Assembly (NCBI GenBank): GCA_963514005.1
Contig: OY740784.1
Location: forward strand, 94,736,001 to 94,800,000
Source: Raja brachyura
Lineage: Eukaryota
DNA: 64,000 bases
Direction: 5' to 3'
The notes below the pieces were generated by a model that ran no database searches, had not been told where the DNA came from, and was given only the letters and a program-made list of their open reading frames with translations. This document shows, one piece after another, positions 5,219 through 55,867 of this stretch. Position 1 is the first letter of the stretch. Every line of letters begins with the position of its first letter. Made by a program: the position numbers and the translations under genes.

Positions 5219-5428
5219 TATGTTTAATATACAGAAAAAGGAAGGGGCAGAGAGAGCAGAAAGGAAGGTAGATGACAAGTTGGAAATTGAAGGACACAAG
5301 CAAAGGTGCTGGCCGAAGGTTATGTTGAAGGTTGGTGAGTAGCAAATGATAACTGGGGGAGATTTAAATAGAAAACAAAATAATTTATTTTAGGGAATAT
5401 GAAAAACAATAAAAAGTTGTTAAGATCT

Positions 5429-5618
5429 GCGTAGGGAGGAACTGCAGATGCTGGTTTACACCGAAGGCAGACACACAATGCTGGAATAACTCAGCGGGAC
5501 AGGCAGCATCTCTGGATAGGACTGGTGACGTTTCAGGTCAATATCCTTCTTCTCAACCCAAAACGTTACCCATTCCTTCTATCCAGAAATGCTACCTGTC
5601 CTGCTGAGTTACTCCAGC
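5429..5618. mobile_element. Palindromic Penelope-pLTR-derived short insertion with 14-bp TSD
   Basis: TSD agttgttaagatct at 5415-5428 and 5619-5632; two inverted pLTR halves meeting in the hammerhead region. Confidence 0.75.
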
Positions 5619-7010
5619 AGTTGTTAAGATCTTATTGCCGCATTATCCACTTTCATTGGGCACAACTGTTAATATTGGGATGACTGTTGTTAGGTCAGTA
5701 GATAGTCTCAGATCCCAGAAATGCATTTGGTTCACAACAATTGCCTTGATACATTCTTTAAGTCTGGCATTAGGTCAGCCAACAGACCACAGATGAAGGA
5801 TAGAGATTTGTCCCTGAATTTCCCTAGATAAAATTACAGTACTGTTGATGGTGTTTGCTTTTAGAATCAGAGAGTCATACAGCATGGAAACAGGCCTTTC
5901 AGCCCAACTTGCCCATACTGAGCAAGATGCTCCATCTACACTAGTCCTACTTGCCTCCATATGGTCCATATCCCTCTATATCTTTCCTATCCATGCACCT
6001 GCCCAAATGTATTTTAAATGGTGCTGTAATACTTGCCTCAACTACCACCTCTAGCAGCTCATTCCGTATACCTACCACTCTCTGTGTGAAAATGTTGCCC
6101 CTCGGGTTCCTATTAAATCTTCTAACTTAAACCTACATCCACTGGTTCTTGATTCCCCTCATGATTTTATACACCTCTATAAGATCACTCGTCATCCTCC
6201 TTTTGCAAGAAATAAAGTACCAGTCAGCCAACCTATCCCTATAGCTCAGGCCCTGAGGTCCTAGCAACTTCATCGTAAATCTTCCATGCACTCTTTCCAG
6301 CTCAACAACATCCTACCTATAGCAGGGATCTGAACACACAAATCTGAACACACAATACTCCAATTGCAACCTTGTGCAGATGTTTGTGCAAAACATAACA
6401 TCCCAACGCCTACACTCAATACGCTTACTGATAAAGGCCTATGTACTGAATGCTTTCCTGACTACCCTATCTACCTGTGATACCACTTTCAACCAACTAT
6501 GTACCTGCACGCCTAGATCCCTACGCTTTAAAACACCCCACAGGCTTCTGACATTCATTATGTAAGTCCTGCCCTGGTTTAACTTTCCAAAATGAAAACC
6601 CTTGCACTTATCTTCATTAAACTCTATTACCCATTCCTCTGCCCACTTGTCCAACTGATTGGGATCCTGCTGTAAGTGTTGATAACTATCTTCACTGTCT
6701 ACAATACCACCAACTTTAGTGTCATCTGCAAACCTACTAATCATGCCTTCTACATTTTAATCCAAATCATTGAAGCAAACCATAAACAGCACCGCACCAC
6801 TGCACCGATCTTTGAGGCACACCATGAGTCACAGTCCTCCAATCCGAGAAACAACCTTCCATGATCACCCTTTGGTTTCTTCCATGAAGCCAATTCTCTA
6901 TCGAATCGGCGAGCTCTCCCTGGATCTCATGCGATCTAACGTTCCAGAGCAGCCTTCCCTGCAGAACCTTATCAAATGCCTTGTTGAAGTCCATATAGGC
7001 AATGTCTACA

Positions 7011-7800
7011 GCTTCCGGTGGGCGGCGCGACTCTTGTCGCAGCGACCTCTGCAGTCCGTCTGTCTTTTTTTTTTCCGTCTCGTTTTGAGTGTAGTTATAG
7101 TGTTTTTTTTTATTTGTGTATGTGTGGGGGGTGGGGGGGCGGGGTGGGGGAAACCTTTAAAATTGTTTCCCTGTACGGAGGACCCGACCTTTTCTCTGTC
7201 AGGTCTCCGTTGTCGTTGGGGCCTAGCACCGCGGAGCGGCTTCCGACTGGACCTGGGGCTCCAGTCGCGGGGCTGCGGGCTACTTACCAATGTGGAGCTG
7301 GCCGAGTTCGGAACGGGAGGAGCTGTCGTGGCGCGCTGCTGTTGCCTGACCCCGGAGATTCGGAGGCTCCAGCTGCAGGTCGACGGTGACATCGGGAGCT
7401 CGCGGGTCCCTGGTGGGAGACCGCTTTTCGGAGGTCCCGCGGCGGCAACTTCTCCCGCCCGAGATGCGGGGTTGAAAATGACCTGGAGCGGGCCCGCTGG
7501 GGGCTCCAACATCAATACCAGGAGAGGGGCCTTACATCGCCCCGCGTGGCCTTAACTGCCGCGGGACTTATTTACCATCACCCACCGGGGCTTTGACTCT
7601 GACATCGGGAGGAGAATGGGGAGTGCAGGGGAGAGATAAGGCTTTGCCTTCCATCACAGTGAGGAGGAGCTTCACTGTGATGGATGTTTGTGTAAATTGT
7701 GTTGTGTCTTGGTTCTTTCTTGTTTGTATGACTGCAGAAACTAAATTTCGTTTGAACCTCAATGAGGTTCAAATGACAATAAATGGTATTGTATTGTATT
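7011..7800 (+). mobile_element. GC-rich non-autonomous retroelement with Rex1-type 3' tail
   Basis: Cleanly interrupts the CR1 RT. CpG-rich body; ends atttcgtttgaacctc-aat-gaggttcaaatgacaataaa and (gtatt)3, matching the Rex1 tail at 525-600. No TSD seen. Confidence 0.65.
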
Positions 7801-8786
7801 TGCTCCCATCAACATTTTTGGTTGCTTCTTGAAAAACCTCAATTAGATTCATAAGACATGATCGCCCATGTACAAAACCATACTGACAATCCCAAATCAG
7901 CTCCTGTTTATTCAAATGCGTATACATCATATCCCTCAGAATCCTCTCCAGTAACATGCCTTCCACAGATATGTCAACTCACTGGTCCATAGTTCTCAGA
8001 CTTTTCCTTGCAGTCCTTCTTAAACGTTCACTACCCTCCAGTCATCTGGCACCTCACCCTTGTCTTATGATGATTCATAGATTTTAGCACGAGTGCTTGC
8101 AATTTTTCTTCTCTAGCTTCCCACAGTGTCCTTGGATACATCTGATCAGGCCCAGGAGATTTTGTCGAACTTCATATGCCTAAGGACATTCAGTACCTTC
8201 TTGACCATATTACGGATTGTTCTCAAGACATTTTCATTAACTATCCAAAATTCCCCAGTCTTCTCTCTCCATGGTAAAAACAGATGGGAAATACATATTG
8301 AGTACCTTGCCCATCTCCTGTGTCTCACACAGAGATGACTGCATTGGTTTCTGAGGGCCCGTATTCTCTCTCCAATTACCCTCTTTCCCTTAATTTTACA
8401 TATAATTTGCTTCATTTTTCCTTAATATTATTTAATCAAGCTATCTCCTGCTCCCGGTTTGCCCTCCTGATTTCCTTCTTAAGTATGTTCCTCAGTCCCA
8501 GAAACTCCTCCGGGGATACAATTGGTCCCAGCTGTCCATACCTGCAGGAGGCCTAATTATTTTTCCTGACCAGAGCCTCAATTTTGCTTGTCGTCCAACC
8601 TTCCTTAATCTCAATTGCTTTGTCCTTCACTCTAACAGAACACACATGCCCTGACCTCTTGTCATCACACTTTTAATAACATCCCACTTTCTAGACGTTC
8701 CATTGCCCGCATTCAACTTATTCCAATCAACTTGAGCAATTCCTGTCTAAAACCATGAGAGTTGGCCCGTCCCAATTCAGAATTTG

Positions 8787-9315
8787 AAAAAATGACATGT
8801 TGAAGACTTCCTTCGACTGTAGAAGACCTCCTTCGACCTCCTTCGACTATGTTGAAGACTAGCTACGACTAGCTACGACTAGCTATGACTAACTTCGGGA
8901 AAATTGGATACAAAATAGTGGAGAGTGAAGACAACCTCCTTCGATCTCCTCCGACCTCCCTTCGACCACCCTTTGACTATGATGAAGACTATCTATGACT
9001 ACCCTCGACCAGCTTCGACTACCCTTGATTACCTACGACTAACATGCCGACCTACTACGACCTATTATGACTAAACCTACGAGTAAATAAAGTATCGTTT
9101 TTTACCATGGCAACCGTTTTTTACTCGCGGGCATTTTTTAACATGTTGAAAAAACCGCCGCAACCTAGCTGAGGTCTCGAATACGCAGAGACCACTCTCG
9201 AGCATGCAGGAGAGTAATCAGACCCCCTATGACCTTGTGTCGACCATGCTGCATATTAGTAGAGGACAAACTCGCCAGAACTCGCGGATTAGGTCACCGA
9301 AGTGGGACCTGCCCT
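8787..9315. mobile_element. Harbinger-type non-autonomous element (left TIR missing) with internal CGAC-rich short repeats
   Basis: Right end AAGTGGGACCTGCCCT followed by TAA; many cttcgac/ctacgac units at 8805-9075; interrupts the CR1. Confidence 0.6.
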
Positions 9316-10802
9316 TAACTATTTTAAAGCTAATGGAACAGTGGTCACTGGCACTGAAAAGCTCACCCACAGTCACTTGCCCTTCCTAATTTCCTAAAAG
9401 TAGATAAAGCTTTGCCTTCTCTAATGCAGTGCCTTCTATATTTTGCCTGAAGAAACTTCCCTGAACATATTTGACAAATTCCATCTAAGCTCTTGGATTT
9501 ATGACAGTCCCAATTTATAGTTGGAAAGTTAAAATTCCCCATTATGACAAACCTAAGTACCCAATTCCAGCTTCTACATCCAAGAGAGCTTTTCAATAGA
9601 GAAATTAGAAGTTTGGTGATAAGAAACAGAATAACACTCAAAATGTTATGCAATTGTTAAATAACACTTTTGATCCCTGGATTCTGATATATTCAAGACT
9701 GACAAAAGGAGACAACAGAAGATTAAAATCTTTAATCTGTTAAATGAACCAGCCTGATAACCAGTTGAGTAATGGTCTGTTAATTCCCTCTTCATTTTAC
9801 AATAAATTCTATAATTTACATGTTGGGAAAGTATTCAGCCATGGAGTTAATAGATCTGTCATTCTGGCTATTCTGAAGGGAACAGTGAATATTCAGCCAC
9901 AACTACACATGTCCAGGTCTTGGACATATCACATAATAAGTCTCAAACTTATAATAAGTGTCAGCATGTTTTCATCATTGTGCTATGTTACAGAGCTCCA
10001 GATAAGTTCCCCCAGCCTTCCAATGGAATATCTGCCTCTCTGATTTTACATGTCAGACCTGAAATAGGATGGGGAATAATTTCTTTCCAATGGGGATTCT
10101 TGGCCTAGATTAAATGTCTCTGAACAAATGTTGACAGGAGACAAAGCTCCATCCTTAGCTCTCCTTCATGTCAAATGCTCTCATGTCATTTATAAAGGGG
10201 AGGGGTTTTTTAAACTGTAGTTTTTTTATTTTTTTATTTACTCTGGTGAGATGCTAAAATATAGACTTTCAGTGGGCTCCCCATCATCCCAAATAACGGG
10301 CAGCACATTTAAGATTTGGCGAGAAAATTAGATTGTGAATGATTTTAACAGCTTACTGTTTAAGAAAAGGGTAGTTTGCTAAACTGAAAGGCACAAAACC
10401 TAACAAAATTTACAATACATTTAAGGTGAGAAATAACTTACATTTATAGTCATGGAAAAAACACTGCATTACATTATCTTGATCACTTTCAATAATGAAC
10501 ACCATGATGGATGAGAATAAAAGCAGCTGAACCATTTTAGTGCTCTCAGCTACCTTTGAGTGACATTAATGTTTTACTGCATCTCAAAGACTAGCCTTTT
10601 GAAGTGAAAATGGACTTCAATAAAAGACATAGCACTGAAGATCTGAAATAAAGAATATTGGAAAGGATAGCAGAGCCAAGCTACATGCAGTAAGTTAAGT
10701 GCTTGAGTCTTGGAGGCATTGCGTTAAACATGATTTTTTTTAAAGAGTATAGCTGTCAAATTCAAATAAAAGCTTGTCATGCAACAAATTAATTTTCAAG
10801 TA

Positions 10803-12406
10803 CAGTGGTTTGCAAAAGTATTTATACCCCTTGAACTTTTCCACATTTTGTCACGTTATAACCATAAACATAAATGTATTTTATTGGGATTTTATGTGAT
10901 AGACCAACACAAAGTGGCGCATAATTGTGAAGTGAAAGGAAAATTATACATGGTTTTCACATTTTTTTACAAATAAAAAACTGAAAAGTGTGGCGTGCAA
11001 AAGTATTCAGCCCCCTTTACTCTGATACCCCTAAATAAAATCCAGTGCAACCAATTGCCTTCAGAAGTCACCTAATTAGTAAATACAGTCCACTTGTGTA
11101 TAATCTAATCTCAGTATAAATACAGCTGTTCTGTGAAGGCCTCAGAGGTTTGTTAGAGAACATTAGTGAACAAACAGCATCATGAAGCCCAAGGAACACA
11201 CCAGACAGGTCAGGGATAAAGTTTAAAGCAGGGTTAGGTTAAAAAAAATATCCCAACTTTTGATCATCACACGGAGCACTGTTCAATCCATCATCCGAAA
11301 ATGGAAAGAGTATGGCACAACTGCAAACCTACCAAGACATGGCCGTCCACCTAAACAGACAGGCCGGGCAAGGAGAGCATTGATCAGAGAAGCAGCCAAG
11401 AGGCCCATGGTAACTCTGAAGGAGCTGCAGAGATCCACAGCTCAGGTGGGAGAATCTGTCCACAGGACAACTATTAGTCGTGCACTCCACAAATCGGGTC
11501 TTTATGGAAGAGTGGCAAGAAGAAAGCCATTGTTGAAACAAAGCCATAAGAATTCCATTTGCAATTTTCCACAAGCCATGTGGGGGACACAACAAACAAG
11601 TGGAGGAAGGTGCTCTGGTCTGATGAGACAAAAATTGAAGTTTTTGGCCTAAATGCGAAACGCTATGTATGGCGGAAAACTAACACTGCACATCACCCTG
11701 AACACACCATCCCCACTGTGAAACATGGTGGTGGCAGCATCATGCTGTGGGGATGCTATTCTTCAGCAGGGACAGGGAAGCTGGTCAGTGTTTATGGGAA
11801 GATGGATGGAGCCAAATACAGGGCAATCTTGAAAGAAAACCTGTTAGAGTCTGGAAAAGACTTGAGACTGGGGCAGAGGTTCACCTTCCAGCAGGACAAC
11901 GACCCTAAACATACAGCCAGAGCTACAATGGAATGGTTTAGATCAAAGCATATTCATGTGTTAGAATGGCGTAGTCAAAGTCCAGACCTAAATCCAATTG
12001 AGAATCTCTGGCAAGACTTGAAAATTGCTGTTCACAGACGCTCTCCATCTAATCTGACTGAGCTTGAGCTATTTTGCAAAGAGGAATGGGCATACATTTC
12101 AGTCTCTAGATGTGCAAAGCTGGTAGAGACATACCCCAAAAGACTTGCAGCTGTAATTGCAGCGAAAGGTGGTTCTATAAAGTATTGACTCAGGGGGGCT
12201 GAATACTTTTGCACGCCACACTTTTCAGTTTTTTATTTGTAATAAAATTTGGAAACCATGTATAATTTTCCTTCCACTCCACAATTATACACCACTTTGT
12301 GTTGGTCTATCACATAAAATCCCAATACAATACGTTTACGTTTGTGGTTGTAACGTGACAAAATGTGGAAAAGTTCAAGGGGTATGGATACTTTTGCAAG
12401 TCACTG
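10803..12406 (+). mobile_element. Full-length Tc1 IR/DR DNA transposon, Passport-like
   Basis: TA TSDs (10801-02, 12407-08), CAGTG...CACTG ends, ~210-bp TIRs with inner direct repeat (caaaagtattcagcccc), internal transposase. Confidence 0.95.
11182..12188 (+). pseudogene. Tc1 DD34E transposase, disrupted
   Basis: MKPKEHTRQVRDKV..., GRPPK HTH linker, WSDETK, QQDNDPKH, 34 residues, then NPIEN, and C-terminal KGGSIKY. Deletion/stop near 11220-11260 and a frameshift near 11555. Confidence 0.92.
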
Positions 12407-13579
12407 TATCCAGTGAATCGTGAGCATAATTGTTTTGAAATTTCAGTGTTTTTGCAGGCACAGTTTCAGATAAAATATCCATTATTTTCCTATGGTAGCT
12501 TTTATTAACTGTTTCCTACCTTTCCACATTCATGCAAATCAAAATGGAATATAGCAACACTGTGTTAATCAAACACAACTGGGTGTCTTACTGTAATTTA
12601 AAGGATTCAGATATTTCATTCATTAATCATAAACTGGATACTGGCAATCAAAATACTTCTTATGACCTTAACCATTAATTTTGCTCAATGTATTATGTAT
12701 GACCTATATAACACAATAACCTCTCCTATTAACATAATGAACCAGCACTACAAATGTACTGCGTTGACACAAAAGAACAGAAAGTTCATTCCTTACAAGT
12801 TATCTGTGCTAAATTATTGAAGGCATTTAATTATTTATCAGAGATGAGATCATTTGCAATTACATTTCTTTTTTTCAATGAAATGTTTTAATGTTGCAAC
12901 AGTTAATGGAGCAATCCAAATTAAGCAAAAATATCAAGTCCATGTATCTAAAACTTTATGGAAATAGCCTTTAATTTTGTTGAGCCTTTAAAATATATAT
13001 TTTTAACCTCCCATTTGGTCATCCTATGTCATAATTTGACAGGAAGACAAACAGCTGGCGCAGTCCCAAGTCTTGGCAAGGAGACTGTATCCAGTAGTTG
13101 AAGGATGCTTAGTCAGAGCCCTGTGTGACTCTTTAAAAAAAAACGAATTCATAAGGATTGTGCGAGCTATTAAACATGTTCCTGCTGTAGTTTACAATTA
13201 ATTCGGCTGTTATAGCTACTATCAAATAGTAGACTGTTACACCAAAGAGAAAGGCCATTTAGCCCATCAATTTATACTGGTGGTTTATCTTCTTAATAGG
13301 ACACTACTTCAATCTAGTTCTCTTCACAACCCCTGGCTGCTAATATTGCGCATCTTGAGGCAAATTTGCTTTAAATTCTTAATGATCCTAGTTCACTACA
13401 TCTTTGCAAAGAGGAATTGCTCATGTATTTTCACTTCTGATAAAATAGATTTTTTTTTGTGGTGTTGCTATATTGAATAAAGGTTCTCTTGTTACCGACT
13501 CATTGAGTTACGGAATTAATTGCTCTTTGTTTAGGAAAGATCAAACCTTTAGATCTGTTTTGGATTTGGAGTTAATTTG

Positions 13580-15754: not shown

Positions 15755-16138
15755 ATTTCCTTTCCACTTTCTGCAGAGACTGTTTTTTCCACAACTCCCT
15801 ACTTAACCCATCCCTACCCACCCAAACAACCCAGGTAGCTTCCCCTGCAACTGCACGAGATGCAACACCTGTCCCTATATGTCCTCCCTTGACTATCCAG
15901 GGAGCCTGACAGACCTTTCAGGTGAGGCAGAGGTTAACTTGCACATCCTCCAACCTCACCTACTGTGTCCACTGTTCCAGGTGTGGACTCCTATATATCG
16001 GCGAGACCAAGTGCAGACTGGGTGATCGTGTCGCTGAACACATTCGCTCTGTCTGCCTTGGACTACATGATCTCCCGGTTGCTAAACATTTTGTGTCTCT
16101 CTTTGGTATATATCAGCATCTGCTGTTCCTCCCTACAC
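15755..16138 (+). mobile_element. Penelope-like GIY-YIG endonuclease fragment joined to a pLTR end
   Basis: RQRLTCTSSNLTYCVHCSRCGLLYIGETKCRLGDRVAEH..LPVAKHF, preceded by FPCNCTRCNTCPY; ends cagcatctgctgttcctccctacac. Confidence 0.85.
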
Positions 16139-19392: not shown

Positions 19393-19729
19393 GCTTTTCA
19401 GCGAACATCTGAAGTGAATTGGCGGTCACATTTAGTAAGGCTGAATGCCAAAGGAATAGTTATACTTGCTGACTATGCAGCCAAAGCCAAGTAATCAAAA
19501 TGGAACTTAATTAAATATTGATCCACACGTATAAATATTATAAGAACATGTAGACGAATATTCAATCTTTAACTAACCCTTGCTGGAATTGTGTAGCACG
19601 TTGGAAATGTATGAAATTTCTTAGCTTTTGTTCAAATGAGGTGTCAATATTATTTACAGATGACTTATGTAGGATAAAATTCTGGTACTGATGTTGCACA
19701 CCCTCTGTACCTTTACCTTATAAAAAGCT

Positions 19730-22581
19730 ATGGTCAATCTTATCATCATCTCTTGTAGTGTTGTAAAAACAAGCCTGAAGGCTTTGTGTCTCAATGCGAG
19801 GAGCATTCGTAATAAGGTGGATGAGTTGAAGGTGCAGATAGCGATTAATGACTATGCTATAGTTGGAATCACGGAGACTTGGCTCCAGGATGACCAAGGC
19901 TGGGAGCTGAACATCCAGGGATATTCAATATTCAGGAGGGATAGACGAAAAGGAAAAGGAGGTGGGGTAGCGTTGCTGGTGAGAGAGGAGATTAATGCAA
20001 TAGAAAGGAAGGACATTAGCGTGGAGGATGTGGAATCGATATGGGTAGAGCTGCGAAACTCTAAGGGGCAGAAAACGCTAGTGGGAGCTGTGTACAGGCC
20101 ACCTAACAGTAGTATTGGAGTTGGGGATGGCATCAAACAGGAAATTAGAAATGCGTGCAACAAGGGTAACACGGTTATAATGGGTGACTTCAATCTGCAT
20201 GTAGATTGGGTGAATCAAATTGGCAGGGGTGCTGAGGAAGAGGATTTCCTGGAATGTATGCGGGATAGTTTTCTCAACCAACATGTGGAGGAACCAACGA
20301 GAGAGCAGGCTATTCTAGACTGGGTATTGAGTAATGAGGAAGGGTTAGTTAGCAGTCTTGTTGTGCGTGGCCCCTTGGGCAAGAGTGACCATAATATGGT
20401 TGAGTTCTTCATTAGGATGGAGAGTGACAAAATTAAGTCAGAAACAAGGGTTCTGAACTTGAACAAAGGTAACTTTGAAGGTATGAGATGTGAATTGGCC
20501 AAGATAGACTGGCAGGTGATTCTTAAAGGGTTGACAGTGGATGTGCAATGGAAGGTATTTAAAGACTGCATGGATGAAGTACAAAAGTTGTTCATACCAG
20601 TTTGGCAAAAGAATAAATCGGGGAAGGTGGTGCATCCATGGATAACAAGGGAAATCAGGGATAGTATAAAAACAAAAGATGAGGCATACAAATTTGCCAG
20701 AAAAAGCAGCCTACCGGAGGACTGGGAGAAATTCAGAATCCAGCAGAGGAGGACAAAGGGCTTAATTAGGAAAGGGAAAATAGATTATGAAAGGAAACTG
20801 GCAGGGAACATAAAAACTGACTGCAAAAGTTTTTATAGATATGTAAAGAGAAAGAGACTAGTTAAAACAAATGTTGGTCCCTTGCAGTCAGAAACAGGTG
20901 AATTGATCATGGGGAACAAGGACATGGCAGACCAATTGAATAACTACTTTGGTTCTGTCTTCACTAAGGAAGACATAAATAATCTGCCGGAAATAGCAGT
21001 GGAACGGGGGTCAAATAAGATGGAGGAACTGAGTGAAATCCAGGTTAGCCGGGAGGTGGTGTTGGGTAAATTGAACGGATTGAAGGCCGATAAATCCCCA
21101 GGGCCAGATAGTCTGCATCCCAGAGTACTCAAGGAGGTAGCCACAGAAATAGTGGATGCATTAGTGATAATTTTTCAAAATTCCTTAGATTCTGGAGTAG
21201 TTCCTGAGGATTGGAGGGTAGCTAATGTAACTCCACTTTTTAAAAAAGGAGGGAGAGAGAAAGCGGGGAATTACAGACCAGTTAGTCTAACATCGGTAGT
21301 GGGGAAACTGCTAGAGTCAGTTATTAAAGATGGGATAGCAGCGCATTTGGAAAGTGGTGAAATCATTGGACAAAGTCAGCATGGATTTACGAAAGGTAAA
21401 TCATGTCTGACAAATCTGATAGAATTTTTCGAGGATGTAACTAGTAGAGTGGATAAGGGAGAACCAGTGGATGTGTTATATCTAGACTTTCAGAAGGCTT
21501 TCGACAAGGTCCCGCATAAGAGATTAGCATACAAACTTAAAGCACACGGTATTGGGGGTTCAGTATTGATGTGGATAGAGAACTGGCTAGCAGACAGGAG
21601 GCAAAGGGTAGGAGTAAACGGGTCCTTTTCAGAATGGCAGGCAGTGACTAGTGGGGTGCCGCAAGGCTCAGTGCTGGGACCCCAGCTATTTACAATATAT
21701 ATTAATGATTTGGACGAGGGAATTCAATGCAACATCTCCAAATTTGCAGATGATACCAAGCTGGGGGGTATAGTTAGGTGTGAGGAGGATGCTTGGAGGC
21801 TGCAGGGTGATTTGGATAGGCTGAGTGAATGGCAGATGCATGGCAGATGCAGTACAATGTGGATAAATGTGAGGTTATCCACTTTGGTGGCAAAAACATG
21901 AGGGTAGACTATTATCTGAATGGTGGCAGATTAGGTAAGGGGGAGATGCAACGAGACCTGGGTGTCATGGTACACCAGTCATTGAAAGTAGGCATGCAGG
22001 TGCAGCAGGCAGTGAAGAAAGCAAATGGTATGTTAGCATTCATAGCGAAAGGATTTGAGTATAGGAGCAGGGAGGTTCTACTGCAGTTGTACAGGGTTTT
22101 GGTGAGGCCACACCTGGAGTACTGCGTACAGTTTTGGTCTCCAAATCTGAGGAAAGACATCCTTGCCATAGAGGGGGTACAGAGAAGATTCACCAGACTG
22201 ATTCCTGGGATGTCAGGACTTTCATATGAGGAAAGATTGGATAGACTCGGTTTGTACTCGATGGAATTTAGAAGATTGAGGGGGGATCTTATAGAAACCT
22301 ACAAAATTCTTAAGGGGTTGGACAAGCTAGATGCTGGAAGATTGTTCCCGATGTTGGGGGAGTCCAGAACAAGGGGTCACAGTCTAAGGATAAGGGGGAA
22401 TTCCTTTAGGACCGAAATGAGGAAAACATTATTTACACAGAGAGTGGTGAGTCTCTGGAATTCTCTGCCACAGAAGGTAGTTGAGGCCAGTTCATTGGCT
22501 ATATTTAAGAGGGCGTTAGATGTGGCACTTGTGGCTAAAGGGATCAGGGGGTATGGAGAGAAGGCAGGTACGGGATACTGA
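19730..22581 (+). pseudogene. CR1 ORF2 (APE endonuclease + reverse transcriptase), single 1-nt frameshift at ~21831
   Basis: APE motifs LNARS, ITETW, YRPP, GDFN, SDH; RT motifs [24 protein letters not shown]. ORFs of 723 aa and 250 aa overlap at the lesion. Confidence 0.93.
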
Positions 22582-22680
22582 GTTGGATGATCAGCCATGA
22601 TCACATTGAATGGCGGTGCAGGCTCGAAGGGCCGAATGGCCTACTCCTGCACCTATTTTCTATGTTTCTATGTTTCTATG
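19753..22680 (+). mobile_element. Young CR1 LINE, 5'-truncated just upstream of the APE domain
   Basis: Nearly complete ORF2, 3'UTR hairpin region and (tttctatg)3 tail at 22657-22680. Confidence 0.95.
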
Positions 22681-23068: not shown

Positions 23069-23199
23069 CAAAACCTCAAGAACAAACAAAACTATAACCA
23101 TATAACAATTACAGCACGGAAACAGGCCATCTCGGCCCTTCAAGTCCGCGCCGAACAACTTTTTTCCCTTAGTCCAACCTGCCTGCACTCATACCATAA

Positions 23200-26105: not shown

Positions 26106-27057
26106 CCTCGCCCCAACCATTGTAGTTTAAAGTCTCCCCAGTGGCCTTTGCAAATTTCCCCGCCAGGATATTGGTCCCCCTCGGGTTCAAGTGCAACCCA
26201 TCCTTTCTGTACAGGTCCCACCTTCCCCAAAAGAAGTCCCAATGATCCAGAAACTTGAATCCCTGCCCTCTGCACCAGTCTTTCAGCCACGCATTTATCC
26301 TCCACCTTGCTCCATTTCTACTCTCACTGTCGCGTGGCACAGGCAGTAATCCTGAGATTGTTACCTTTTTGGTCCTTTTCCTCAACTCTCCTCCCAAGTC
26401 CTTAAATCCTCCCTTCAGGACCACTTCCCTTTTTTAACCTATGTCATTGGTACCTATATGTACCACGACCTCAGGCTCCTCTCCCTCTGATTTGAGGATA
26501 TCTTGGACATGTTGAGACACGTCCGAGACCTTGGCACCAGGGAGGCAGACCACCATCCTGGTCTCCCGACTGCGTCCACAGAATCGCCTATCTGACCCCC
26601 TAACAATAGAGTCCCCAATTACTATTGCCCTCCTCTTTTTTTCCCTACCTTTCGGAGCAACAGGGCCGGTCTCTGTGCTGAAGGCCCGTCCTCTGTTGCT
26701 ACCCCCGGGTAGGCTGTCACCCCCATCCATACTCAAACAGGAGTACTTATTTGCCAGGTGTACTGACATTGGAGTACTCACTCGTTCATGCCTCTGCCCC
26801 TTGCCCTTCCTTAGCGTGACCCACAAGTCCCTCTCCTGTGGTTTTGGAGTGACCACCTCCCTATAACTCTCCTCTATCACCTCTTCACTCTCGCTGACCA
26901 GACAGAGGTCATCGAGCTGATGCTCCAGGATCCTAATACGGTCCCTTAGGAGCCCCATCTCTCTGCACCTGATGCAGATGTGGACGTCAAGAGGGCCATC
27001 CGACACCATGACCTCCCACATCTGACATCCAGTACAGTACGCTGCTCTGACTGACAT
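26095..27057 (-). pseudogene. CR1 ORF1 (Zn-finger, coiled coil, SGNH/GDSL esterase), one in-frame stop at 26434-26436
   Basis: CTGC..HICIRC, LRDRIRILEHQL, GDSIVRG, HIGTND, DGLH. The two ORF pieces are in the same frame. Confidence 0.9.
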
Positions 27058-27191
27058 TCTCTCGCCTTACCCTGGATCCGATACCAGTATAATATAATAG
27101 AAACTGCTGTGAGGAATCAGCAGGTATCTGACTCAAACAGCTGCTCCCTCTTGACCTTTAACCTACACCTTTATTATACAAACCAAAAGCA

Positions 27192-28866: not shown

Positions 28867-29000
28867 TGTGTAGGAAGGAACCGCAGATGCTGGTTTAAAC
28901 CGAAGATAGACAAAAAAAGCTGGAGTAACTCAGCGGGACAGGCAGCATCTCTGGAGAGAAGGGATGGGTGATGTTTCACTTCAACATCCTTCTTCAGACC
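28867..29000 (-). mobile_element. Penelope-pLTR-derived short element
   Basis: gtgtaggaaggaaccgcagatgctgg...cttcttcagac; ends at the hammerhead CUGA. Confidence 0.75.
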
Positions 29001-31549: not shown

Positions 31550-31698
31550 GTTTCCCTTACACCTGACTTTCAGTCTGAAGAAGGGTTGCGACCCGATACG
31601 TCACCCATTCTCTAGAGATGCTGCCTTTGCTGTTGGGTTACTCCAGCATTTTGTGTCTATCTTCGGTTTAAACCAGCTTCTTCAGTCCTATCCTACAC
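31550..31698 (+). mobile_element. PLE pLTR short element with mutated hammerhead (GAAA to GAUA)
   Basis: cagtctgaagaagggttgcgacccgatacgtcacc...cctacac. Confidence 0.7.
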
Positions 31699-32344
31699 AT
31701 ATCATAGTGCTGAATGCTGTAGATAGAAATAAGTGCATGTGAATTACCGATTTACCTAGAAGCACTGTTTGGGTCCCTCAATGGTAGTTCAGACCAAATA
31801 AACGTCTCATTTAACCTATTGGAAACGGCCATATAAAATTCTATTTGCACGATGGTTAATTCAATATGAAATAAAGAATTCTTAACACACCAATGTTACT
31901 GTGCTGTAAAACATGATTAATCTGTCTGGCTTGAGATAGATTGTACATTAACGTTATCATAAAATAATAAGACTCGCAGTGCAATTACACCAGAAGTGTC
32001 GCATAAAATAGGTCAAACAGCAGCTAAACCAAAGTCACCATCAAATATATATATTTGTGATCAAAGTCATAATCAAAAACAAAGTGGATTTATGTAGCAT
32101 TTCTTGTAACCTTAAGATGTCCTCGCGCACAATTCAAGCACTGAAATATTCTTCAAGTCTAGTCAAGTTAAGAAACATGACAATTAATAGTGCATAATTA
32201 CACCCCACTAAGAACAATGTGATCATGACTAGATAATGTTTTATAGTGAGTTTGATGAGGGATAAGTATGACCAAGAAATTGGAGGCAAGTCAACTGGTT
32301 TCTTTGCCATTGAGCATAGCGTTTTGAAGGTTCCCCAGTAATTA

Positions 32345-38420: not shown

Positions 38421-41068
38421 GTTTAAGAAAGAACTCCAGATGCTGGAAAAACGTTTTTGTCAACCTACATGCCTGTACTTCTTGCACGGAGAATCCATAC
38501 TGTATCAGTGTATTCATTAAGAGATGTGGCTTTTATTAAATTACATTCTGTAAGCAGCAGAGACCCTAGGCCAATAGTTTTTTACACTGTTGATAGATAT
38601 GTACATGAAGATCTATCACCTAGAATTTTGCGCAAACTCAGAGCGTAGTGATGATGAACTGTGACAGATTAGCATTGTGTACATTTTTAGGAAAATGATA
38701 GTGCCCACTCCTTAGGTTTGCATACTACGAAATATTCCATTGGCCTCTGAACAGTTCTGCCATTACCTCTCTGGAACACTATAACCTTATTTCCCTTTAC
38801 CCCAACCCCACTAAAATCAATAGCAATCTAAATTTTCCTGCATTAAAAACAATTGTCTTGGGTCTGCCACTCAGGCTAAAAAATAATTGCCTAAATGCTG
38901 TGGCAACCATTTGATTAAAAAGGATGCATATTACCTAATTGTATTTAAATTATGTGCTAATCAGAACAAATGATCGTGTTATTGATTTGGACAATAAATT
39001 TGCCGCATTCAATTTATAAGGGAAAACCTAATCGTATTTCATTTTTTAAAACTGAAGGATCCAGTTTGGGGATTACTGCAAGCGGGATTCTGGTATGTTG
39101 TGACTCGTTCACTTATCTACATAATTATTGCTTACACACCAGGCTTCCTCAAACACGTCTGACCCTTTGCAATAATCTGATTGCATAATTAACTTTGTTT
39201 CTTTGGCAGAAGTTGAGAGCAACAAACACATTTAGTTTGTCATTTTTAAATCAATTTGCTTTTCGATTTTCAATTGTTAGCTATAATCAGATTTTAAATT
39301 GATTCTGAGTGTCAAGGATCTTGTTAGGGAGATGGGATTGAAGGAAAGTTGTCAAACTTTGTTCAGTTTGCAATGACCTCTACTGAAGGTACCTGCCGGT
39401 CGGTGCCTGTGGTGAGATTTCCCTATTGGAACATATGCATCCAATTTCTCATCTTCCATTCTATGTATTGGTCAGTCTGGGACTCCACTGCACCACTGAG
39501 CTCTCCATAAGGTGCAATTTCCCAGTAGAATCCCCTGACTCTTAAGCTAGGAGTGATCCAGTTAGCCCTAAATCAAGTCCACATTGCTGGCCTGCTGAAC
39601 ATGCCTTCTGGTCATCAGTTTCAGGCAACCCTGGCTCAGACCCATGCCCTGGGCTTGGGCATGGACCATCCCAGGTCTAATCTCAAATGCCTCAAGTTCA
39701 GCTTAATTTTGAATATCCAAGAATCAGAAATGGCATAGAAACAGGCTCTTCAGCCCACCATGTCTATGCTGACCATGCCTATGTACTTATCCATACTAAT
39801 CCCATTTACCAGCCATCTGATTGTTCACCCACTCTTCCTTGTTGACTCAAATGCTCCTCTATATTGTTAACATGTTGTGTGTCTGCCTCCACCACTCACT
39901 GAGGCAGTACATTTCAGATACCAACAACTATCCACATTTCATTCATCCTCACAGATGCACTCGTTTGATAGCACTCAAGGTCCTAAACCGAACACTTAAT
40001 CTGGCCAAACTGGATGCACCTCACATAGACAGCTCAACAAAACTATCACCATACATAAGCATAAACCCCTGCTCAGCACATAATGTGTAGAACAGCCCCC
40101 TGAGTCTATAGCAGGAGCCGCCATTTTGGTGCCATTTTACAGCCCCACTGCCCATTCTACAAGGCCCATTCTACCCACCTCCTCCATTACAGTTGGCCCC
40201 TGAACCGCCGTCCCTCTCCTTGCATTACTTTCTTCAACCCTTGTTCCACAAGTGGTGCCTCCCACTGTCAACCTTGAGGGCACAGAAGATAAGGCCCCTC
40301 TCTCCCCGCCCCCCCGCTTTTCATAATACCGGGAACTTTATCCAGCATCCGTCACCATCCTCCGCGGCTTCCCTCTCTGGGTGGGTTCCCACATCCACGG
40401 CGAGCAAGCCAGGCCTGCTGTTGGGATACGGCTGCAGCTCGCTGGGTCTCCTTTCGCTGCGTGCAGCTCAGTGGGATTCAAGTGCAATGATACAAACCTC
40501 AAGTGTTTGAGAAGCTTCCACAAAGGCTTAGTTCCTCAATGTCTAGTAGTAGCATGATATTGCACGGTGTTTCTTACTCACACCTCCTTTGTATTGACTG
40601 CACCAAGCATCCGTGTGACCTTCAGCACGTATTCCTACATGTGCTCTTACAACAGGAGCAGTGGATGGGCCATCCCTGTCAACATCGAGCAACTTGCACT
40701 AATGGCAAGGTTCTTGCAGTCATTGATGGGGATTGCTGCTCCCACAATCTCAGTTTTCTTTTAACTTTGTCTATCCGCACCAGCCAATTTTTGCCACATG
40801 CTTCAACCACTGTCAGATCCCAGGCACCTTCAGGTAATCTGATTTAGCAGTGAAAGGGATGGTCGACCAGTTAGGCCGATTGGCGTAGTGCATGGACTTG
40901 CTCATCCTACTCTGGCTCCTGATGCCAACTCATATTGGACGCAGATGCTGATCAACCTGACATCCGACCTTGGATCTAAGCAGATAATGGCCTCTATGTG
41001 CAGGGAGGCTTTGATCAGAATTCTCCCACTGCCTGGAATCATCATCCCTCTTATGCCTCCTACCTTAC

Positions 41069-41348
41069 GAAAAAGTATCGATGATAAAGGAAACAGGCCA
41101 TTGTAAGCTGTTATACTGTTTCCTTTATCATTGATACTTTTTCGCATATCTTTCATTCATTGTTCTTTATCTCTCCACATCACCGTCTATATCTCTCGTT
41201 TCCCTGATCCCTAACCAGTCTGAGGAAGGGTCTCAACCCGAAACGTCACCTATCTCCTTCGCTCCTTAGATGCTGCTGCACCCGCTGAGTTTCTCCAGCC
41301 TTTTGTGTACCCTCGATTCTCCAGCATCTGCAGTTCCTTCTTTAACAC
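41069..41348 (+). mobile_element. PLE 3'UTR/pLTR insertion with 5' inversion and intact hammerhead core (41220-41247)
   Basis: 28-bp inverted repeat at 41070-41143; CUGAGGA-A-GGGU-CUCA-ACCC-GAAACGUC; body near-identical to 4845-5045. Confidence 0.75.
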
Positions 41349-42077
41349 TGAAGAACCATGAGAATGTGTTGATTCACTGCACTGTTGCTGAGGCAACAGT
41401 TTTCCTCAGTTTTACTGAGATTACGAACAGAGACAAGGTCAATACATTCCAAAAATGTTGTGAATCATCATACCAGGGTATGATACCAATGAGGTTCACT
41501 TCCCCATTTGGCTGCATATTTTTAAAACAACCTTGATAAAGTGGTCGCAAATTCAATAGTTCTGCTATAACGCATTGGCTGCATTCTTAAGAAATCTTGT
41601 GTTATTGAAAATGATGTTATAAGGCCAATAGTGTTAATAGAGGAAAGGGATTTGCGACTAGAAGATTTCAGACTTGTAATATCACAGTTATTTGTTCCAC
41701 AGCCATTTCAAATGGCTAAAAGTTTATTTTTTTTACTGCAAGCAAAAAATACTCAAGGCTGTATCTTACATTGTTTAGTAAAGTATCCTTGCACAAATGT
41801 CAAAAGAAACAATGGGCTGCAACTTTCAATATTCACTTGTGGTTCAACTAGCTGCTGTGTGCTTAATAGACGACGTTTTTTAATTATTGAGAGGAACATT
41901 TTTTTCCCCTCTATTGTTTAAATCCAAAGCAGTTTTTTCTCTCTTTGTTAACCTCCAAAGTAATTCTTCAGCAATTCTCTAATTCCTAATCAAAGTTGTA
42001 GTATAACCAATTTAGCCAGCATTATGCAAGCTGTGTTCCCTAATTCATCAATCATGTTATATCCAATTCATATTACG

Positions 42078-42167
42078 GAAGATAGTCCCAAAATGCTAGA
42101 GTAATTTAGCAGGTTGGGCAGCGTCTCTGGAGAAAGGGTGACGTTTCAGGTTGAAACCCTTTTTCAG
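42078..42167 (-). mobile_element. PLE pLTR short fragment
   Basis: gggtgacgtttcaggttgaaaccctttttcag is a degenerate hammerhead on the minus strand. Confidence 0.55.
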
Positions 42168-42498
42168 GAAACACACTTTATAGCAGAACCATTTTTATTT
42201 TACAAGGCAGGGCTCATCGAATGGTCATCAATGTACATAGTTTTAAGAATAAACAAATGACCACTTAGGATTCACCTTTATATCAAAATATTGGTTCAAG
42301 GACAAGCAAAATCCAGCTTAAGAAACACTAGAACTTTAAGAAGTTAATCTGACACATGGGCTATGAATAAAATATTGTTAAAGTACTTTTTGAAGAATTT
42401 TATAATGCTGCTTGCTATTTGCTAAATTGACAACCATTGAGTTGAGGGCTGGGTTGTACAACTTGCCAAGGTTATTCGGAGACGGAGCCAGCTACTTA

Positions 42499-42851
42499 CA
42501 GTGGCTTGCAAAAGTATTCATACGCCTTGAACTTTTCCACATTTTGTCACGTTACAACCACAAACGTAAATGTATTTTATTGGGATTTTATGTGATAGAC
42601 CAACACAAAGAGGCACATAATTGTGAAATGGAACGAAAATGATACATGGTACATTGCACGACACACTTTTCAGTTTTTTATATGTAATAAAATTTGGAAA
42701 CCATGTATCATTTTCCTTCCACTTCACAATTATGCACCACTTTATGTTGGTCTATTACATAAAATCCCAATAAAATACATTTACATTTGTGGTTGTAACA
42801 TGACAAAATGTGGAAAAGTTCAAGGTGTATGAATATTTTTGCAAGCCACTA
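42499..42851. mobile_element. TIR-only MITE derived from the Passport-like Tc1
   Basis: TA flanks; both halves align to the TIRs of 10803-12406; transposase absent. Confidence 0.92.
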
Positions 42852-42959
42852 TATGTTTGGCAATGCCAATTGCAGGGGGCTGTGCTCCCATTGAAAGAGT
42901 TAACTTGTGGTAGCTGCTGGAAATAACATGTTCCAAGAGGCTTGTAAGCAGCTAGCTCT

Positions 42960-47889: not shown

Positions 47890-48590
47890 GGTCTCTCACC
47901 CTCATCATCCTGGGCGTAACCAATGACCAAAAACCCAACAGGATCAGCCACATAAATACCATGGCTGCAAGACCGGATCAGACACTTGCCAAGTGACTCA
48001 TCTCCACACAATCCAGAACCAGGAAACACAAGGAACTGCAGATGCTAGAATCTAGCGCAAAACATATAGTGCTGGAGTAACACAGCCTGACCCACAGAGT
48101 TACACCAACACTCTGTGTTTTAATTCAGAACCTTCCCACAAGGCATAAATCAAGGGTGAATGAAGTACTCAAATCTTGTGGGAATAAGTGGATTTCTAAC
48201 AACAGTCAGGAAGCTCAAATCTTTCCAAGACAAAGCACCCATTAATTGACAACTAATCCACCATCCCAACCATTCATTCCTACCAGCAACAGAGCACCGT
48301 AACTGTTGTGTGTACAATCTTCAAAACACACCGCAGATACCTATCTAGGTTGCCTAGGCAACATCTTTTCAAACATATGACCTCCAACACCAAGTACAGT
48401 GACAGCAGGCACATGGGAACACTTCCAACTACAGATTAGTTTCTGTGACACACATAATCCTGATAGAAATATATCATTGTTGCCCAGTCAAAATCCTGGA
48501 ATTCTCTTCCCAGTAGCATTTTGGAAGCACCTGCAGCAGAGGTACTGTGTGATTGGGGCGAGTGATAACTTTCACCACCCAAGCACCGGG
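47890..48590 (+). mobile_element. Old CR1/L2-group LINE 3' fragment, with a PLE-derived palindromic insert at 48021-48121
   Basis: ILGVTNDQK..SHINTMAARPDQ; insert flanked by aatccagaacc / aattcagaacc. Confidence 0.55.
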
Positions 48591-49809: not shown

Positions 49810-50910
49810 GGAATAGGGCAGACCACATTTGGAATATTGTAAGCTGTTTTGGCCCCATATCTGAGAAAGGATGAGATGGCATTGGAGAAAGTCAAGAGGA
49901 GGTTTACGAGAATTAACCCGGGGATGATTGGGTTATTGTACGAGGAGCATTTGATGGCTGCTGGACCTATACTTGCTGCAGTTTAGAAGGATGAGGGGGA
50001 TCTCATTAAAACCTACCAAATAATGAAAGGCTTAGCTAGAGATCATAAGTTTGTAAGTTCATGTGAAAGTCCTAGCAGAATTAGGACATTCGGCCCATCA
50101 ATTCTGTTCCACCATTCAATCATGGCGGATCTATCTCTCCTAATCCCATTCTCCTGCCTTCTCCCCATAACCCCTGACACCCATTCTAATCAAGAATATA
50201 TCTATCTCTGCCTTAAAAATAGATTCAAGATTCAAGATTCAAGAGTTTATTGTCATGTGTCCCAGATAGGACAATGAAATTCTTGCTTTGCTTCAGCACA
50301 ACAGAATATAGTAGGCATGAATAATAGCCATTGCCTTGGCCTCAACAGCCTTCTGTGGCAATGAATTGCACAGATTCACCACCCTCTGACTAAAGCAATT
50401 CCTCCTCATCTCTTTCCTAAAGGAATGTCCTTTAATTCTGAGGCTATGACCTCTGGTCCAAGACTCTCCCACGAGTGGAAACATCCTCTTCACACACTCT
50501 CTCCAGGCCTCTCACTATTCGTCAAGTCTCAATGAAGTGTCCCTTCATCCTTGTAAACTCCAGCAAGTAGAGGCCCAGTGCCATCAAATGAGTAGACGTG
50601 AAGAGCATGTTCCCAGCAGTGGGAGAGTCGAGGACCAGACGGCACAGTCTCAGAATAATAGGACAAACCTTTAGAATGGATGAGGAGTAGTTTCTTTAGC
50701 CAAAGTGTCATGAATCTATGGAATTCATTGCTGTAGACATGGGTGGATGCTGTCATTGGGTATTTTTTTAAAATATTGCTAATTTCTTGAATAGTAAGGT
50801 TGTCAAAGTTTACAGGGAGAAGTCAGGAGAATGGCGTTGAGGGGGAAAAAATAGATCAACCATGATTGCATGGTGGAGCAGACTCGATGGGCGACATGAT
50901 AGTCTTATGA
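49810..50910. mobile_element. Cluster of CR1 3' fragments in both orientations, with a Rex1 tail at 50221-50323
   Basis: RTRGHSLRIKG motifs on both strands; (ttcaaga)3 followed by gtttattgtcat. Confidence 0.7.
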
Positions 50911-51814: not shown

Positions 51815-52445
51815 TCCATCCACAATGTCTCTGCTGGATATGAGGCCAAGTTAAACTATCATATAATCCATATTCCTCCATTCACTGAATATTCATGTGC
51901 CTATCTAAAAACATCTCAAATGCCACTATCATATTTGTTTCCAATACCAGTTCTAACACCACATTCCACACACCTGGCATTTTTGGTGTAAAAACTTGCA
52001 CCATGTATTTTGTTTAATTTTTCTCTGACCTTAAATCTTTGCCCTCTAGGCTTTGACATATCCACCCTGGGAAAAAAAGTTCTGGTTTTTCACCCTATCT
52101 AGGGCTCTCCTAATTTTATACACTTCTACCAGGTCGCTTCTCAGCCTCTGACACTCCAATGAAAATAATCTGAGTTTGTTCAACCTCTCATTATTGCTAA
52201 TGCGCTCTAATCAAGAATCGTTATATTAAGCATAGAAAGGAACTGCAGATGCTGGTTTACGCCGAAGATTGGCACAAAATGCTGGAGTAAGTTGGCGGGT
52301 CAGGCAGCATCTCTAGAGAAAAAGAAGAGATGACATTTCGGGTTGAGTCCTTTCTTCAGACTTCTTCAGTCTATCTTCAGCATTATATTAAACATTTTCT
52401 GCACCCTTTCAAAATCCTCCACATCCTTCTTGAAATTGGGTGCAA
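51815..52445 (-). mobile_element. Old CR1 3' fragment with a PLE-derived insert at 52230-52382 (TSD ttatattaa)
   Basis: CR1 sequence on both sides of the insert; TSD at 52221-29 and 52383-91. Confidence 0.65.
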
Positions 52446-52489
52446 TGGGATAAGAATTAAAGTGACTCTTTTATCTGAACAAACCAAAA

Positions 52490-53664: not shown

Positions 53665-53742
53665 GTTCAGATTCAGATTCAGATTCAGATTCAATTTTAA
53701 TTGTCATTGTCAGTGTACAGTACAGAGACAACGAAATGCATT
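53665..53742 (-). mobile_element. Rex1-type 3' tail with (ttcaga)n
   Basis: (ttcaga)4 followed by ttaattgtcat...acgaaatg. Confidence 0.55.
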
Positions 53743-54949: not shown

Positions 54950-55050
54950 CCCACCTATTTGCTTCTAAGATCTCGAGTATCTATAGCAGGTATCTCAAGG
55001 CATTAGAAAAATATCATCAATGCTTTCTCCATAGTATCACTAAATTTATT
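54950..55050 (+). mobile_element. RTE-type LINE fragment
   Basis: LFASKISSIYSRYLKALEKYHQCFLHSI resembles the RTE motif LYxxETWT.YxRHLKALEKYHQ. Confidence 0.5.
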
Positions 55051-55059
55051 CGGCAGGAA

Positions 55060-55355
55060 GGTGGCTCAGGGGTAGAGTTGCTGCCTTACAGCGCTTGCAA
55101 CTCCGAAGATGCGCGTTCGATCCCGACTACGGGTGCTGTCTGTACGGAGTTTGTACGTTCTCCATGGGTTTCCTCCGAGATGTTCAGTTTCCTCCCACAC
55201 TCCAAAGACGTACAGGTTTGTAGGTAAATTGGCTTCGTAAATGTAAAAATTGGCCCCAGTGTGTGTGAGATACTGCAGGGATCTGCAGGGATCGCTGGTC
55301 GGCACGGACCCGGTGGGCCAAAGGGCCTGTTTCTGCGCTGTATCTCTAAAATTAA
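55060..55355 (+). mobile_element. HE1-like V-SINE
   Basis: A and B boxes, V-domain, tail ctgtatctctaaa. Confidence 0.88.
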
Positions 55356-55620
55356 AAAAAGACAAACCAATGTCAGTGACCTTTATCAGGCCGACACCCC
55401 CAGCTTTGAAGACCTAGATGCACACAGTTGACTATGTTGTGCAGGCCATACAACACCAATCATGAGAGGAATAGATTGTCTTGCCCAGAGTAGAGGAATC
55501 GAGAACCAGAGGGCATAGGGGAAGGGATTTATAGAAATTTGAGGGGCAAATCTTTCACATAAAGGGTGGTGCAGGTATGGAAGGAGCTGCCGGAGAGGTA
55601 GTCAAGGCAGGGACAATTGC

Positions 55621-55768
55621 GTTAAAGAAGGAACTGCAGATGCTGGAGAATCGAGGGTTACACAAAAAGCTGGAGAAACTCAGCGGGTGCAGCAGCATCT
55701 AAGGAGCGAAGGTGATAGGCAACGTTTCGGGTCGAGACCCTTCTGTCGACCCAGCTTTTTGTGTAACC
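55621..55768 (-). mobile_element. PLE-derived short insertion with 13-bp TSD and terminal inversion, inside an old plus-strand CR1 (55440-55867, 57326-57395)
   Basis: TSD cagggacaattgc at 55608-20 and 55769-81; ggttacacaaaaagctgg inverted as ccagctttttgtgtaacc. Confidence 0.8.
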
Positions 55769-55867
55769 CAGGGACAATTGCAATGTTTAAGAAGCAATTA
55801 GGCAGGTACCTAGAATACGACAGGTTTACAGAAATATGGGCTGAATTGCAGGCAAGTGGGACATGTA

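Follow-up and report, generated by a model that had tools for sequence, protein, structure and literature searches.

The window, a stretch of 64,000 nucleotides of Raja brachyura DNA, contains 17 HMM matches to a Penelope-like element (PLE), including two long copies (4638-5047 and 41116-41347); the copies discussed here are collected in Table 1. The short inserts are the terminal 95-135 bp of very abundant, autonomous PLEs of the Neptune type. Element positions are counted from the T of CAG/TCTGAAGA as coordinate 0, the sense strand being the one that reads CTGANGA...GAAAC, and the predicted hammerhead cut lies between +28 and +29. The four target-site duplications (TSDs) reported in the initial annotation were confirmed exactly, as was its remark that three further copies have no clear one: at 28867-29000 the best repeat is a doubtful 8 bp with one mismatch, and the flanks of 31550-31698 and 42078-42167 hold no repeat of at least 7 bp. 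The gcagttccttc end, said to be shared by all these copies, is a real 3' end, the known PLE "tail", but it is absent from 42075-42167, which stops at +99, and from inverted arms that end at about +85..+96.

Table 1. Pieces of the Neptune-type element and their TSDs in the window (signed numbers are element coordinates)
Feature	Position	Strand	Details
Additional old copy	2212..2347	minus	-1..+117
Head-to-head pair	2409..2599		plus arm -1..+119, minus arm +15..+96; junction 2490/2491
Long subfamily-A copy	4638..5047	plus	last GIY-YIG codons 4638-4703, 3'UTR, hammerhead core 4950-4973, tailless end
Inverted insertion, subfamily B	5429..5618		tailed arm minus 5552-5430 (+3..+129), tailless arm plus 5551-~5618 (+12..~+80)
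TSD of 5429-5618	left 5415-5428, right 5619-5632		14 bp, exact
PLE GIY-YIG remnant fused to end piece	15892..16138	plus	remnant 15892-16098, end piece +77..+130
Simple copy, putatively of run-off type	28867..28999	minus	-1..+131; whole hammerhead core at 28997-28974
Tailed copy	31550..31699	plus	by eye, goes ~20-30 nt beyond hammerhead into 3'UTR-like pyrimidine tract
Subfamily-A copy	41068..41347	plus	-103 to tail; short inverted piece upstream
Tailless copy	42075..42167	minus	+1..+99
Old small inverted insertion, no hammerhead	48021..48121		minus arm +53..+123
TSD of 48021-48121	48010-48020 / 48122-48132		11 bp, 1 mismatch
Tailed arm within 52230..52382	52362-52234	minus	-2..+126; extra ~20 bp reads by eye as very short second arm
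TSD of 52230-52382	52221-52229 / 52383-52391		9 bp, exact
Inverted insertion, young subfamily A	55621..55768		tailed arm minus 55744-55621 (+5..+130), 18-bp tailless arm plus (+76..+94)
TSD of 55621-55768	55608-55620 / 55769-55781		13 bp, exact

Copy 4638..5047 shows the parent element, and its segment 4712-4950 continues into RT and GIY-YIG ORFs in other copies. Elsewhere in the genome, locus L202 has an intact ORF of 1,192 aa, with RT and C-terminal GIY-YIG (Pfam RVT_1 at 676-844, E 2e-4, and GIY-YIG at 1096-1129, E 2e-3, both below curated cut-offs); its first ATG lies past the tail, at +161, and its translation includes CNRKRCYTC, which fits the CX2-5CxxC linker preceding GIY-YIG that PMC8557442 gives as a Neptune feature. 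Such a parent carries the single ORF with RT and C-terminal GIY-YIG of EN+ PLEs. Pfam found nothing in three partial PLE ORFs and a PDB search with the full ORF gave no match, while an Rfam scan of the window yielded five weak matches, none of them to a hammerhead family, the hammerhead motif having been read from the sequence. This motif, together with a tail made optional by the two 3' end classes described below, corresponds to a pseudo-LTR (pLTR), and the combination of TSDs with inverted, 5'-truncated arms is that of EN+ PLEs. In every one of the subfamilies A, B and C there are copies running into that subfamily's own 3'UTR and GIY-YIG remnants.

Across subfamilies, 272 HMM matches were found in 700 kb of sampled DNA, of which the stubs make up 3.5%, and this extrapolates to about 1.05 million arms. 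Breakpoints were studied in 115 arms of the young subfamily (A), after removal of 3 duplicates from 118; among these 118, 60 were the first pattern matches on one contig and 40 were inverted, each inverted event being counted as two arms. Because upstream divergence between subfamilies inflated a first breakpoint histogram, a stricter A anchor and upstream clustering were applied. Loci L151-L153 are segmental duplications. TSDs accompany 36 of 68 unique-flank young copies (one locus pair among the 68 being a duplicate) vs 64 of 3,000 mismatched flank pairs, and 16/90 vs 3/600 in an older mixed set. This excess over chance, which the initial annotation had expected, and the ORF-linked parent copies support its view of a PLE origin with TPRT-type TSDs. 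The 3' ends of young copies are bimodal, at +90..96 and +127..131, and these two classes resemble the two internal RT start sites and the tail of an anole element (PMC11167929).

At the other end, 55 of the 96 young arms at risk break within 9 nt (-3..+5) at the 5' edge of the hammerhead. For the 115 young arms this amounts to 55 breaks in 720 nt at risk vs 33 in 23,929 upstream, a 55-fold difference (p 3e-61), so that the clustering of breakpoints at the hammerhead noted in the initial annotation holds and a uniform distribution is not seen. Around the cut site (+26..+33) there are 2 breaks in 897 nt at risk (2/115 young arms) and 6 of 263 ends across subfamilies, three of the 263 falling exactly at +29, as does L271 in the young set; a shoulder of 15/115 young ends lies inside the fold, at +6..+25. 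The 5' ends are ragged (-3..+25), with a mode at -1 across subfamilies, where the start lies at +5 or earlier in 168 of the 263 copies without extension; in extended control copies the start was called at -2 in 30/39. Genome-wide, only 7,968 of the 21,300 exact cores reach -5 (6 nt upstream). The breakpoints first noticed in the window map to -1/+15 (2491/2490), +3/+12 (5552/5551), -1 (28999), +1 (42167), -2 (52362) and +5 (55744); each of them lies on the 5' edge or within helix II, and the cut site has none. Since tailed (22/34) and tailless arms (33/44) have the same peak, it reflects a position and not a length limit. For the same reason, namely that tailless arms also show the peak, a long-range pairing between the 5' edge and the tail, seen in A and C and absent in B, was rejected as its cause. 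A literature search for such a peak in the main text of openly accessible papers found no description of it.

Inverted copies combine one tailed and one tailless arm in 20 of 20 young events and in 38 of 48 pairs across subfamilies, where 50% would be expected (p 3e-5). Direct repeats of the core occur in a few young arms (L248, L268).

The inserts are 3'-terminal pieces of Neptune-type PLEs, and we consider it likely that they are abortive products of internal priming followed by run-off at the 5' end of uncut RNA. Transcription would start at an Inr-like YCAGTC (~-2..0) in the upstream pseudo-LTR, and the priming sites would therefore be only 95-130 nt from the RNA 5' end. Primed at the nicked target, the RT of the element would begin at an internal position of the RNA, +94 or +129, and run off the 5' end of uncut RNA just before the hammerhead; that more than half of the stubs stop at the front edge of the ribozyme is likely because the enzyme starts ~100-130 nt inside the RNA and runs off. 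The first cDNA would be a strong-stop-like piece, integrated as such in simple copies, whereas in inverted copies microhomology would join it to a second cDNA, for which the opposite strand at the staggered cut would serve as primer at the other site, and the overlapping arms would need two passes or two RNAs. For the long copies (~40%), the cDNA would either jump or be extended further on a template that is tandem, circular or a 3' end. The template jumps at the hammerhead proposed in the initial annotation are supported; the hammerhead itself would mark the RNA start, and its cleavage would not be necessary. In LTR elements, minus-strand strong-stop DNA is primed near the RNA 5' end, runs off and then jumps; the primer here would instead be nicked target DNA, and the run-off product could therefore integrate at once. 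In L1 twin priming two primers also yield an inversion, but the two arms here overlap in template.

In each of A, B and C the majority sequence is YCAGTCTGAAG, and YCAGTC at ~-2..0 is what we take to be Inr-like. G is over-represented before the start genome-wide, with 1,410 G vs 483 T at -3 (G:T 2.9) and 2,436 G vs 1,204 T at -2 (G:T 2.0), compared with a ratio of ~0.72 predicted by base composition, both counts being confounded by microhomology; in an unselected sample G precedes 7/20 peak starts vs 5/38 others (p 0.09). For an untemplated G before the first base at a capped start, PMC3287187 provides a precedent. As evidence of a cap the excess is ambiguous, because G-preceded loci include inversions (17/40 and 7/20), several have a target-derived G, and GGG starts are compatible with short jumps onto an internal GGGTCT repeat. 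Contigs of four sequencing runs from other organisms have loose ends before -3..-1; since contigs do not reveal where an RNA begins and are mixed with differences between subfamilies, these ends are not used as support. Three near-full-length copies speak against a start at -2: by eye, they begin at about +17, +44 and +78.

An RT blocked or dissociating at the 5' edge of the hammerhead on a longer RNA (by a hammerhead dimer, a bound protein or a CAG splicing intermediate), or an RNA spliced there, could also give such a peak, and this we regard as unlikely. Starts are commonest at G(-1), the base that opens the 2-bp helix I, the shoulder at +6..+25 lies within the fold, and a pyrimidine tract with CAG, resembling a 3' splice site, is kept at the breakpoint in every subfamily; in D. 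virilis an intron ends at helix I, according to PMC4209133. However, if a stable fold were the obstacle, RT should halt at the 3' edge of that fold (+22..+35), where hardly any ends lie, whereas the peak is on the far (5') side as RT travels; about 40% of copies read through the edge, with no excess of ends just upstream. The folds are no better than shuffled ones (z -1.4, -0.2, -1.2), an alignment fold of the hammerhead region returned no structure, and a two-copy cofold did not give the catalytic hammerhead dimer. No common spliced exon 1 was found between TSD and start, distant TSDs are no commoner than one inverted event and one repeat account for, and none of six interpretable direct junctions lies at a GT donor. 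The idea in the initial annotation that the fold or the cut sets the boundary is not supported. That self-cleavage generates the 5' end of the copied RNA is very improbable, and as the main route it is refuted: the few ends at exactly +29 would fit rare cleavage, but the catalytic core, situated 5' of the cut, is kept whole in most copies, ends are scarce at +26..+33, and cleavage is dispensable in vitro (PMC11167929). The 6/263 ends near the cut also indirectly disfavour a self-cleaved or circular RNA intermediate.

The separate SINE- or retrozyme-like family of the initial annotation, with short copies transcribed from a retained Inr and downstream elements and re-mobilised in trans, appears quite unlikely, even though arms are so numerous and non-autonomous PLE derivatives such as MRC1 are known from parts of PMC8557442 and 10.64898/2026.07.22.740005. 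Extended copies are scarce in subfamily B (18/211 matches, vs 13/32 A-type), and two variants of A differ in their fraction of short copies (27/33 vs 42/73, p 0.016), so that some short source genes are conceivable; ORF-linked B copies exist, and all three subfamilies have long ORF-linked copies. Against such a family, there is no fixed 5' end, both 3' priming sites are in use, no position is diagnostic of short copies (short and long copies of A have the same variants), and short copies have no common unique upstream sequence except target repeats. The anole system requires sequence beyond the start sites (PMC11167929), which short copies do not have. Non-LTR (animal) retrozymes, as 10.64898/2026.07.22.740005 outlines them, are likewise derived from PLE pLTRs, non-coding, equipped with a type I hammerhead and present in a chondrichthyan, but they are defined by at least two tandem head-to-tail HHR units, whereas the named inserts are single or head-to-head, with no tandem units.

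Run-off from uncut RNA can be set beside what is described for other PLEs. In their passages on EN+ PLEs of the Neptune clade, PMC8557442 and PMC3846280 report 5'-truncated copies, an inverted pLTR, a 30-40-bp tail and a TSD, and our element has in common with these the RT and C-terminal GIY-YIG ORF, a Cx4CxxC linker, a tail confined to one end, arms placed head to head and joined at palindromes or microhomologies, TSDs of 7-17 bp and solo pLTRs. Truncation is frequent in those passages, with no single-position peak described, whereas here ~60% of arms break within a few bases; the pairing of tailed with tailless arms is also close to a rule here, unlike in the Neptune PLEs described there. 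With the anole Poseidon element PAc in vitro the skate element shares two RT start sites defining the tail, the cutting and extension of both strands and an uncleaved RNA substrate; the anole protein, a predicted dimer, cuts both strands and extends them, and has no need of HHR cleavage, while the PAc ORF begins inside the hammerhead and the first ATG here lies past the tail (PMC11167929). For genomic copies, that paper offers no map of 5' ends.

The minimal metazoan PLE hammerheads, as PMC4209133 presents them, resemble ours in the CUGANGA motif, bulged base, long helix II and palindromic helix III, and differ in helix I, which has only ~2 bp here. They are mostly single and "probably related to truncated PLEs", with some close opposite-strand pairs, and both arrangements occur here too; the model given there is of cleavage and circularisation, whereas the copies here would come mostly from uncut RNA. 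We tentatively suggest, as a possibility that goes well beyond run-off itself, that PLE integration passes through a strong-stop stage, in which two uncut RNAs are held in a dimeric RNP and may be paired at their 5' ends by the palindromic helix III of the hammerhead, the two nicked strands prime at different sites (+129 or +94) and each cDNA ends by run-off where transcription begins; the million or so stubs would then be its fossil record, and the hammerhead a promoter-overlapping dimerisation signal more than a cutter. How PLEs finish transposition and what minimal hammerheads do are open questions in PMC11167929 and PMC4209133, and the genomic record predicts an RNA that begins at the hammerhead and is copied without being cut, with different priming sites for the two strands. 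Read as stubs, many lone hammerhead motifs in such genomes would be explained without a new SINE, and repeat libraries may list these stubs as a separate family.

Breakpoints of the short insertions cluster at the 5' edge of the hammerhead; the phenomenon is real and mechanistically useful, and it is a property of a known class, the Penelope-like elements (PLEs), not a new system. The element type, its tail, the inversions, the target-site duplications (TSDs) and lone hammerheads have all been published; our literature search found no prior description of the peak at the hammerhead 5' edge or of the tailed/tailless arm rule described below. Element positions are counted from the T of CAG/TCTGAAGA as 0; on this scale the hammerhead is predicted to cut between +28 and +29.

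A stepwise upstream walk through the genome from window positions 4712-4950 led to the parent, of which a 4.06-kb copy (L202, outside the window) carries an intact ORF of 1,192 aa with RT motifs, a Cx4CxxC linker and GIY-YIG; a linker of this type is given as a mark of Neptune/Nematis in PMC8557442. PLEs in the 64-kb window are remnants only, with no PLE ORF. The 'gcagttccttc' end that the initial annotation saw as common to the insertions is indeed the PLE tail, with the amendment that two 3' ends occur, at +90..+96 (tailless arms) or +127..+131 (tailed arms), an arm being one element piece. The tail in the 5' pseudo-LTR (pLTR) continues into the ORF (ATG at +161). An end-piece profile gave 333 matches of at least 25 bits in 964 kb, and 272 matches in 700 kb across many contigs; arms make up 3.5% of the bases in the 700-kb sample, which extrapolates to about 1.05 million arms in the 2.7-Gb genome. 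There are at least three subfamilies (A, B and C), each with its own 3'UTR terminating in a pyrimidine tract plus CAG, and GIY-YIG remnants lie 85-330 bp upstream of B- and C-type ends.

The breakpoint test is clean in the young subfamily A because its upstream sequence is known. Among 115 arms (118 found less three duplicates, four censored arms retained), 96 were at risk at +5..-3 and 55 of these break there, a rate of 0.076 per nt vs 0.0014 upstream (p 3e-61). A further 15 arms have their break at +6..+25, and two at +26..+33. The peak is common to tailed (22/34) and tailless arms (33/44). Exact genome-wide counts gave 21,300 cores starting at or before +1 and 7,968 reaching -5, an extension of about 40% once 1% divergence is allowed for. 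When all subfamilies are pooled, 168 of 263 non-extended matches start at or before +5, with the mode at -1, and six at +26..+33. Starts before -2 are censored, as the profile itself begins there; of 39 extended controls, however, 30 were assigned to -2, which shows that the -1 mode does not come from the profile's edge. A uniform spread of breakpoints, the refuting outcome named in the initial annotation, fails decisively. The six breakpoints first placed within or beside the ribozyme map to -1, +3, -1, +1, -2 and +5; two partner arms break at +12 and +15.

The four TSDs reported initially are present where they had been placed, with lengths of 14, 11 (one mismatch), 9 and 13 bp; flank inspection revealed no convincing TSD at the three remaining copies. 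TSDs of 7-16 bp surround 36 of 68 young copies with unique flanks vs 64 of 3,000 mismatched pairs, and empty copies of target repeats confirmed clean insertion. The proposed SINE-like family is not supported for subfamily A, where the same variants occur in short and long copies and no position is diagnostic; the short fraction does differ between two of its variants (p 0.016). Short source genes may nevertheless exist in subfamily B, since just 18 of its 211 matches were recognised as extended. As for a retrozyme-like identity, the inserts are not tandem units, unlike the animal retrozymes described in 10.64898/2026.07.22.740005.

All 20 young inverted (head-to-head) events with both ends readable join one tailed and one tailless arm, and across subfamilies 38 of 48 pairs do so vs 50% expected (p 3e-5). 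The arms overlap in template, one usually extending to the peak; the arms meet at short microhomologies, in many cases the CAGACTG palindrome, and most units are flanked by TSDs of 7-17 bp. That the tail is limited to one PLE end is known from PMC8557442 and PMC3846280. The strict pairing fits the anole PLE protein (PMC11167929), which uses two start sites and both cuts and extends each strand.

As RT travels 3' to 5' on RNA, a stable fold should halt it at +22..+35 and self-cleavage should yield starts at +29; the peak is at neither, and folding gave no unusual stability for the hammerhead region, which argues against the ribozyme as the boundary first envisaged. Run-off at an RNA 5' end, the probable mechanism, would leave such a peak, fixed just before the motif whatever the cDNA length. 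The break site reads YCAGTC in the majority sequences of all three subfamilies, which we take to be an Inr match. PLE promoters are described as internal, in the pLTR (PMC2377424, PMC8557442). Before the start there is a G excess (G vs T, 1,410 vs 483 at -3 and 2,436 vs 1,204 at -2) that resembles the cap G reported for L1-mobilised inserts (PMC3287187), though inversions, target-derived G and internal-repeat jumps account for part of it, as 60 inspected loci show. The same site also resembles a splice acceptor, and splicing of the RNA there would have a precedent in the D. virilis PLE (PMC4209133), but neither an exon 1 nor GT donors were found at the copies and junctions inspected. Joins that read as jumps following run-off are seen: ORF pieces are joined onto the hammerhead start at three loci (L201, L203, L246), in the first two mid-ORF, as from a template jump, and at L257 a copy of 148 bp of nearby flank lies between two arms.

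The window is vertebrate DNA rich in repeats, presumably like those of cartilaginous fish, and includes CR1-type LINEs and one Tc1-type transposon.

Features in the window and at other loci (L) of the same genome
Position	Feature	Details
10801-12409	Tc1/mariner-type element	215-bp inverted ends; DDE_3 transposase frameshifted
42494-42856	short MITE-like palindrome	derived from ends of the element at 10801-12409
15892-16138	PLE GIY-YIG remnant	fused straight to +77..+130 end piece, without 3'UTR or hammerhead
30320-30493	PLE GIY-YIG remnant	
19724-22670, 55866-57325, 57638-60454	CR1-type ORF2, near-complete	725 aa plus frameshifted end; two copies, 91-92% identical
23108-24116 / 30541-31549	1-kb repeat	97% identity; second CR1-type subfamily
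26434-27066 (minus)	ORF1-like frame	GDS motif; listed with second CR1-type subfamily
27192-27487	tandem repeat	19-bp unit x15.6 (97%); adjoins 5' region of second CR1-type LINE
27621-27905	tandem repeat	80-bp unit x3.4; adjoins same region
50358-50731	palindromic hairpin	made of LINE 3' sequence; no relation to PLE end
60867-60957	palindromic hairpin	no relation to PLE end
L201:2650-4600, L203:2713-4650	PLE copies	start in 5' pLTR, enter ORF, join mid-ORF to hammerhead start
L257:1301-1448	148 bp separating head-to-head arms	inverted copy (98%) of flank lying about 480 bp away
L151, L152, L153	segmental duplications	5-10 kb, 98% identity; close to starts of three contigs
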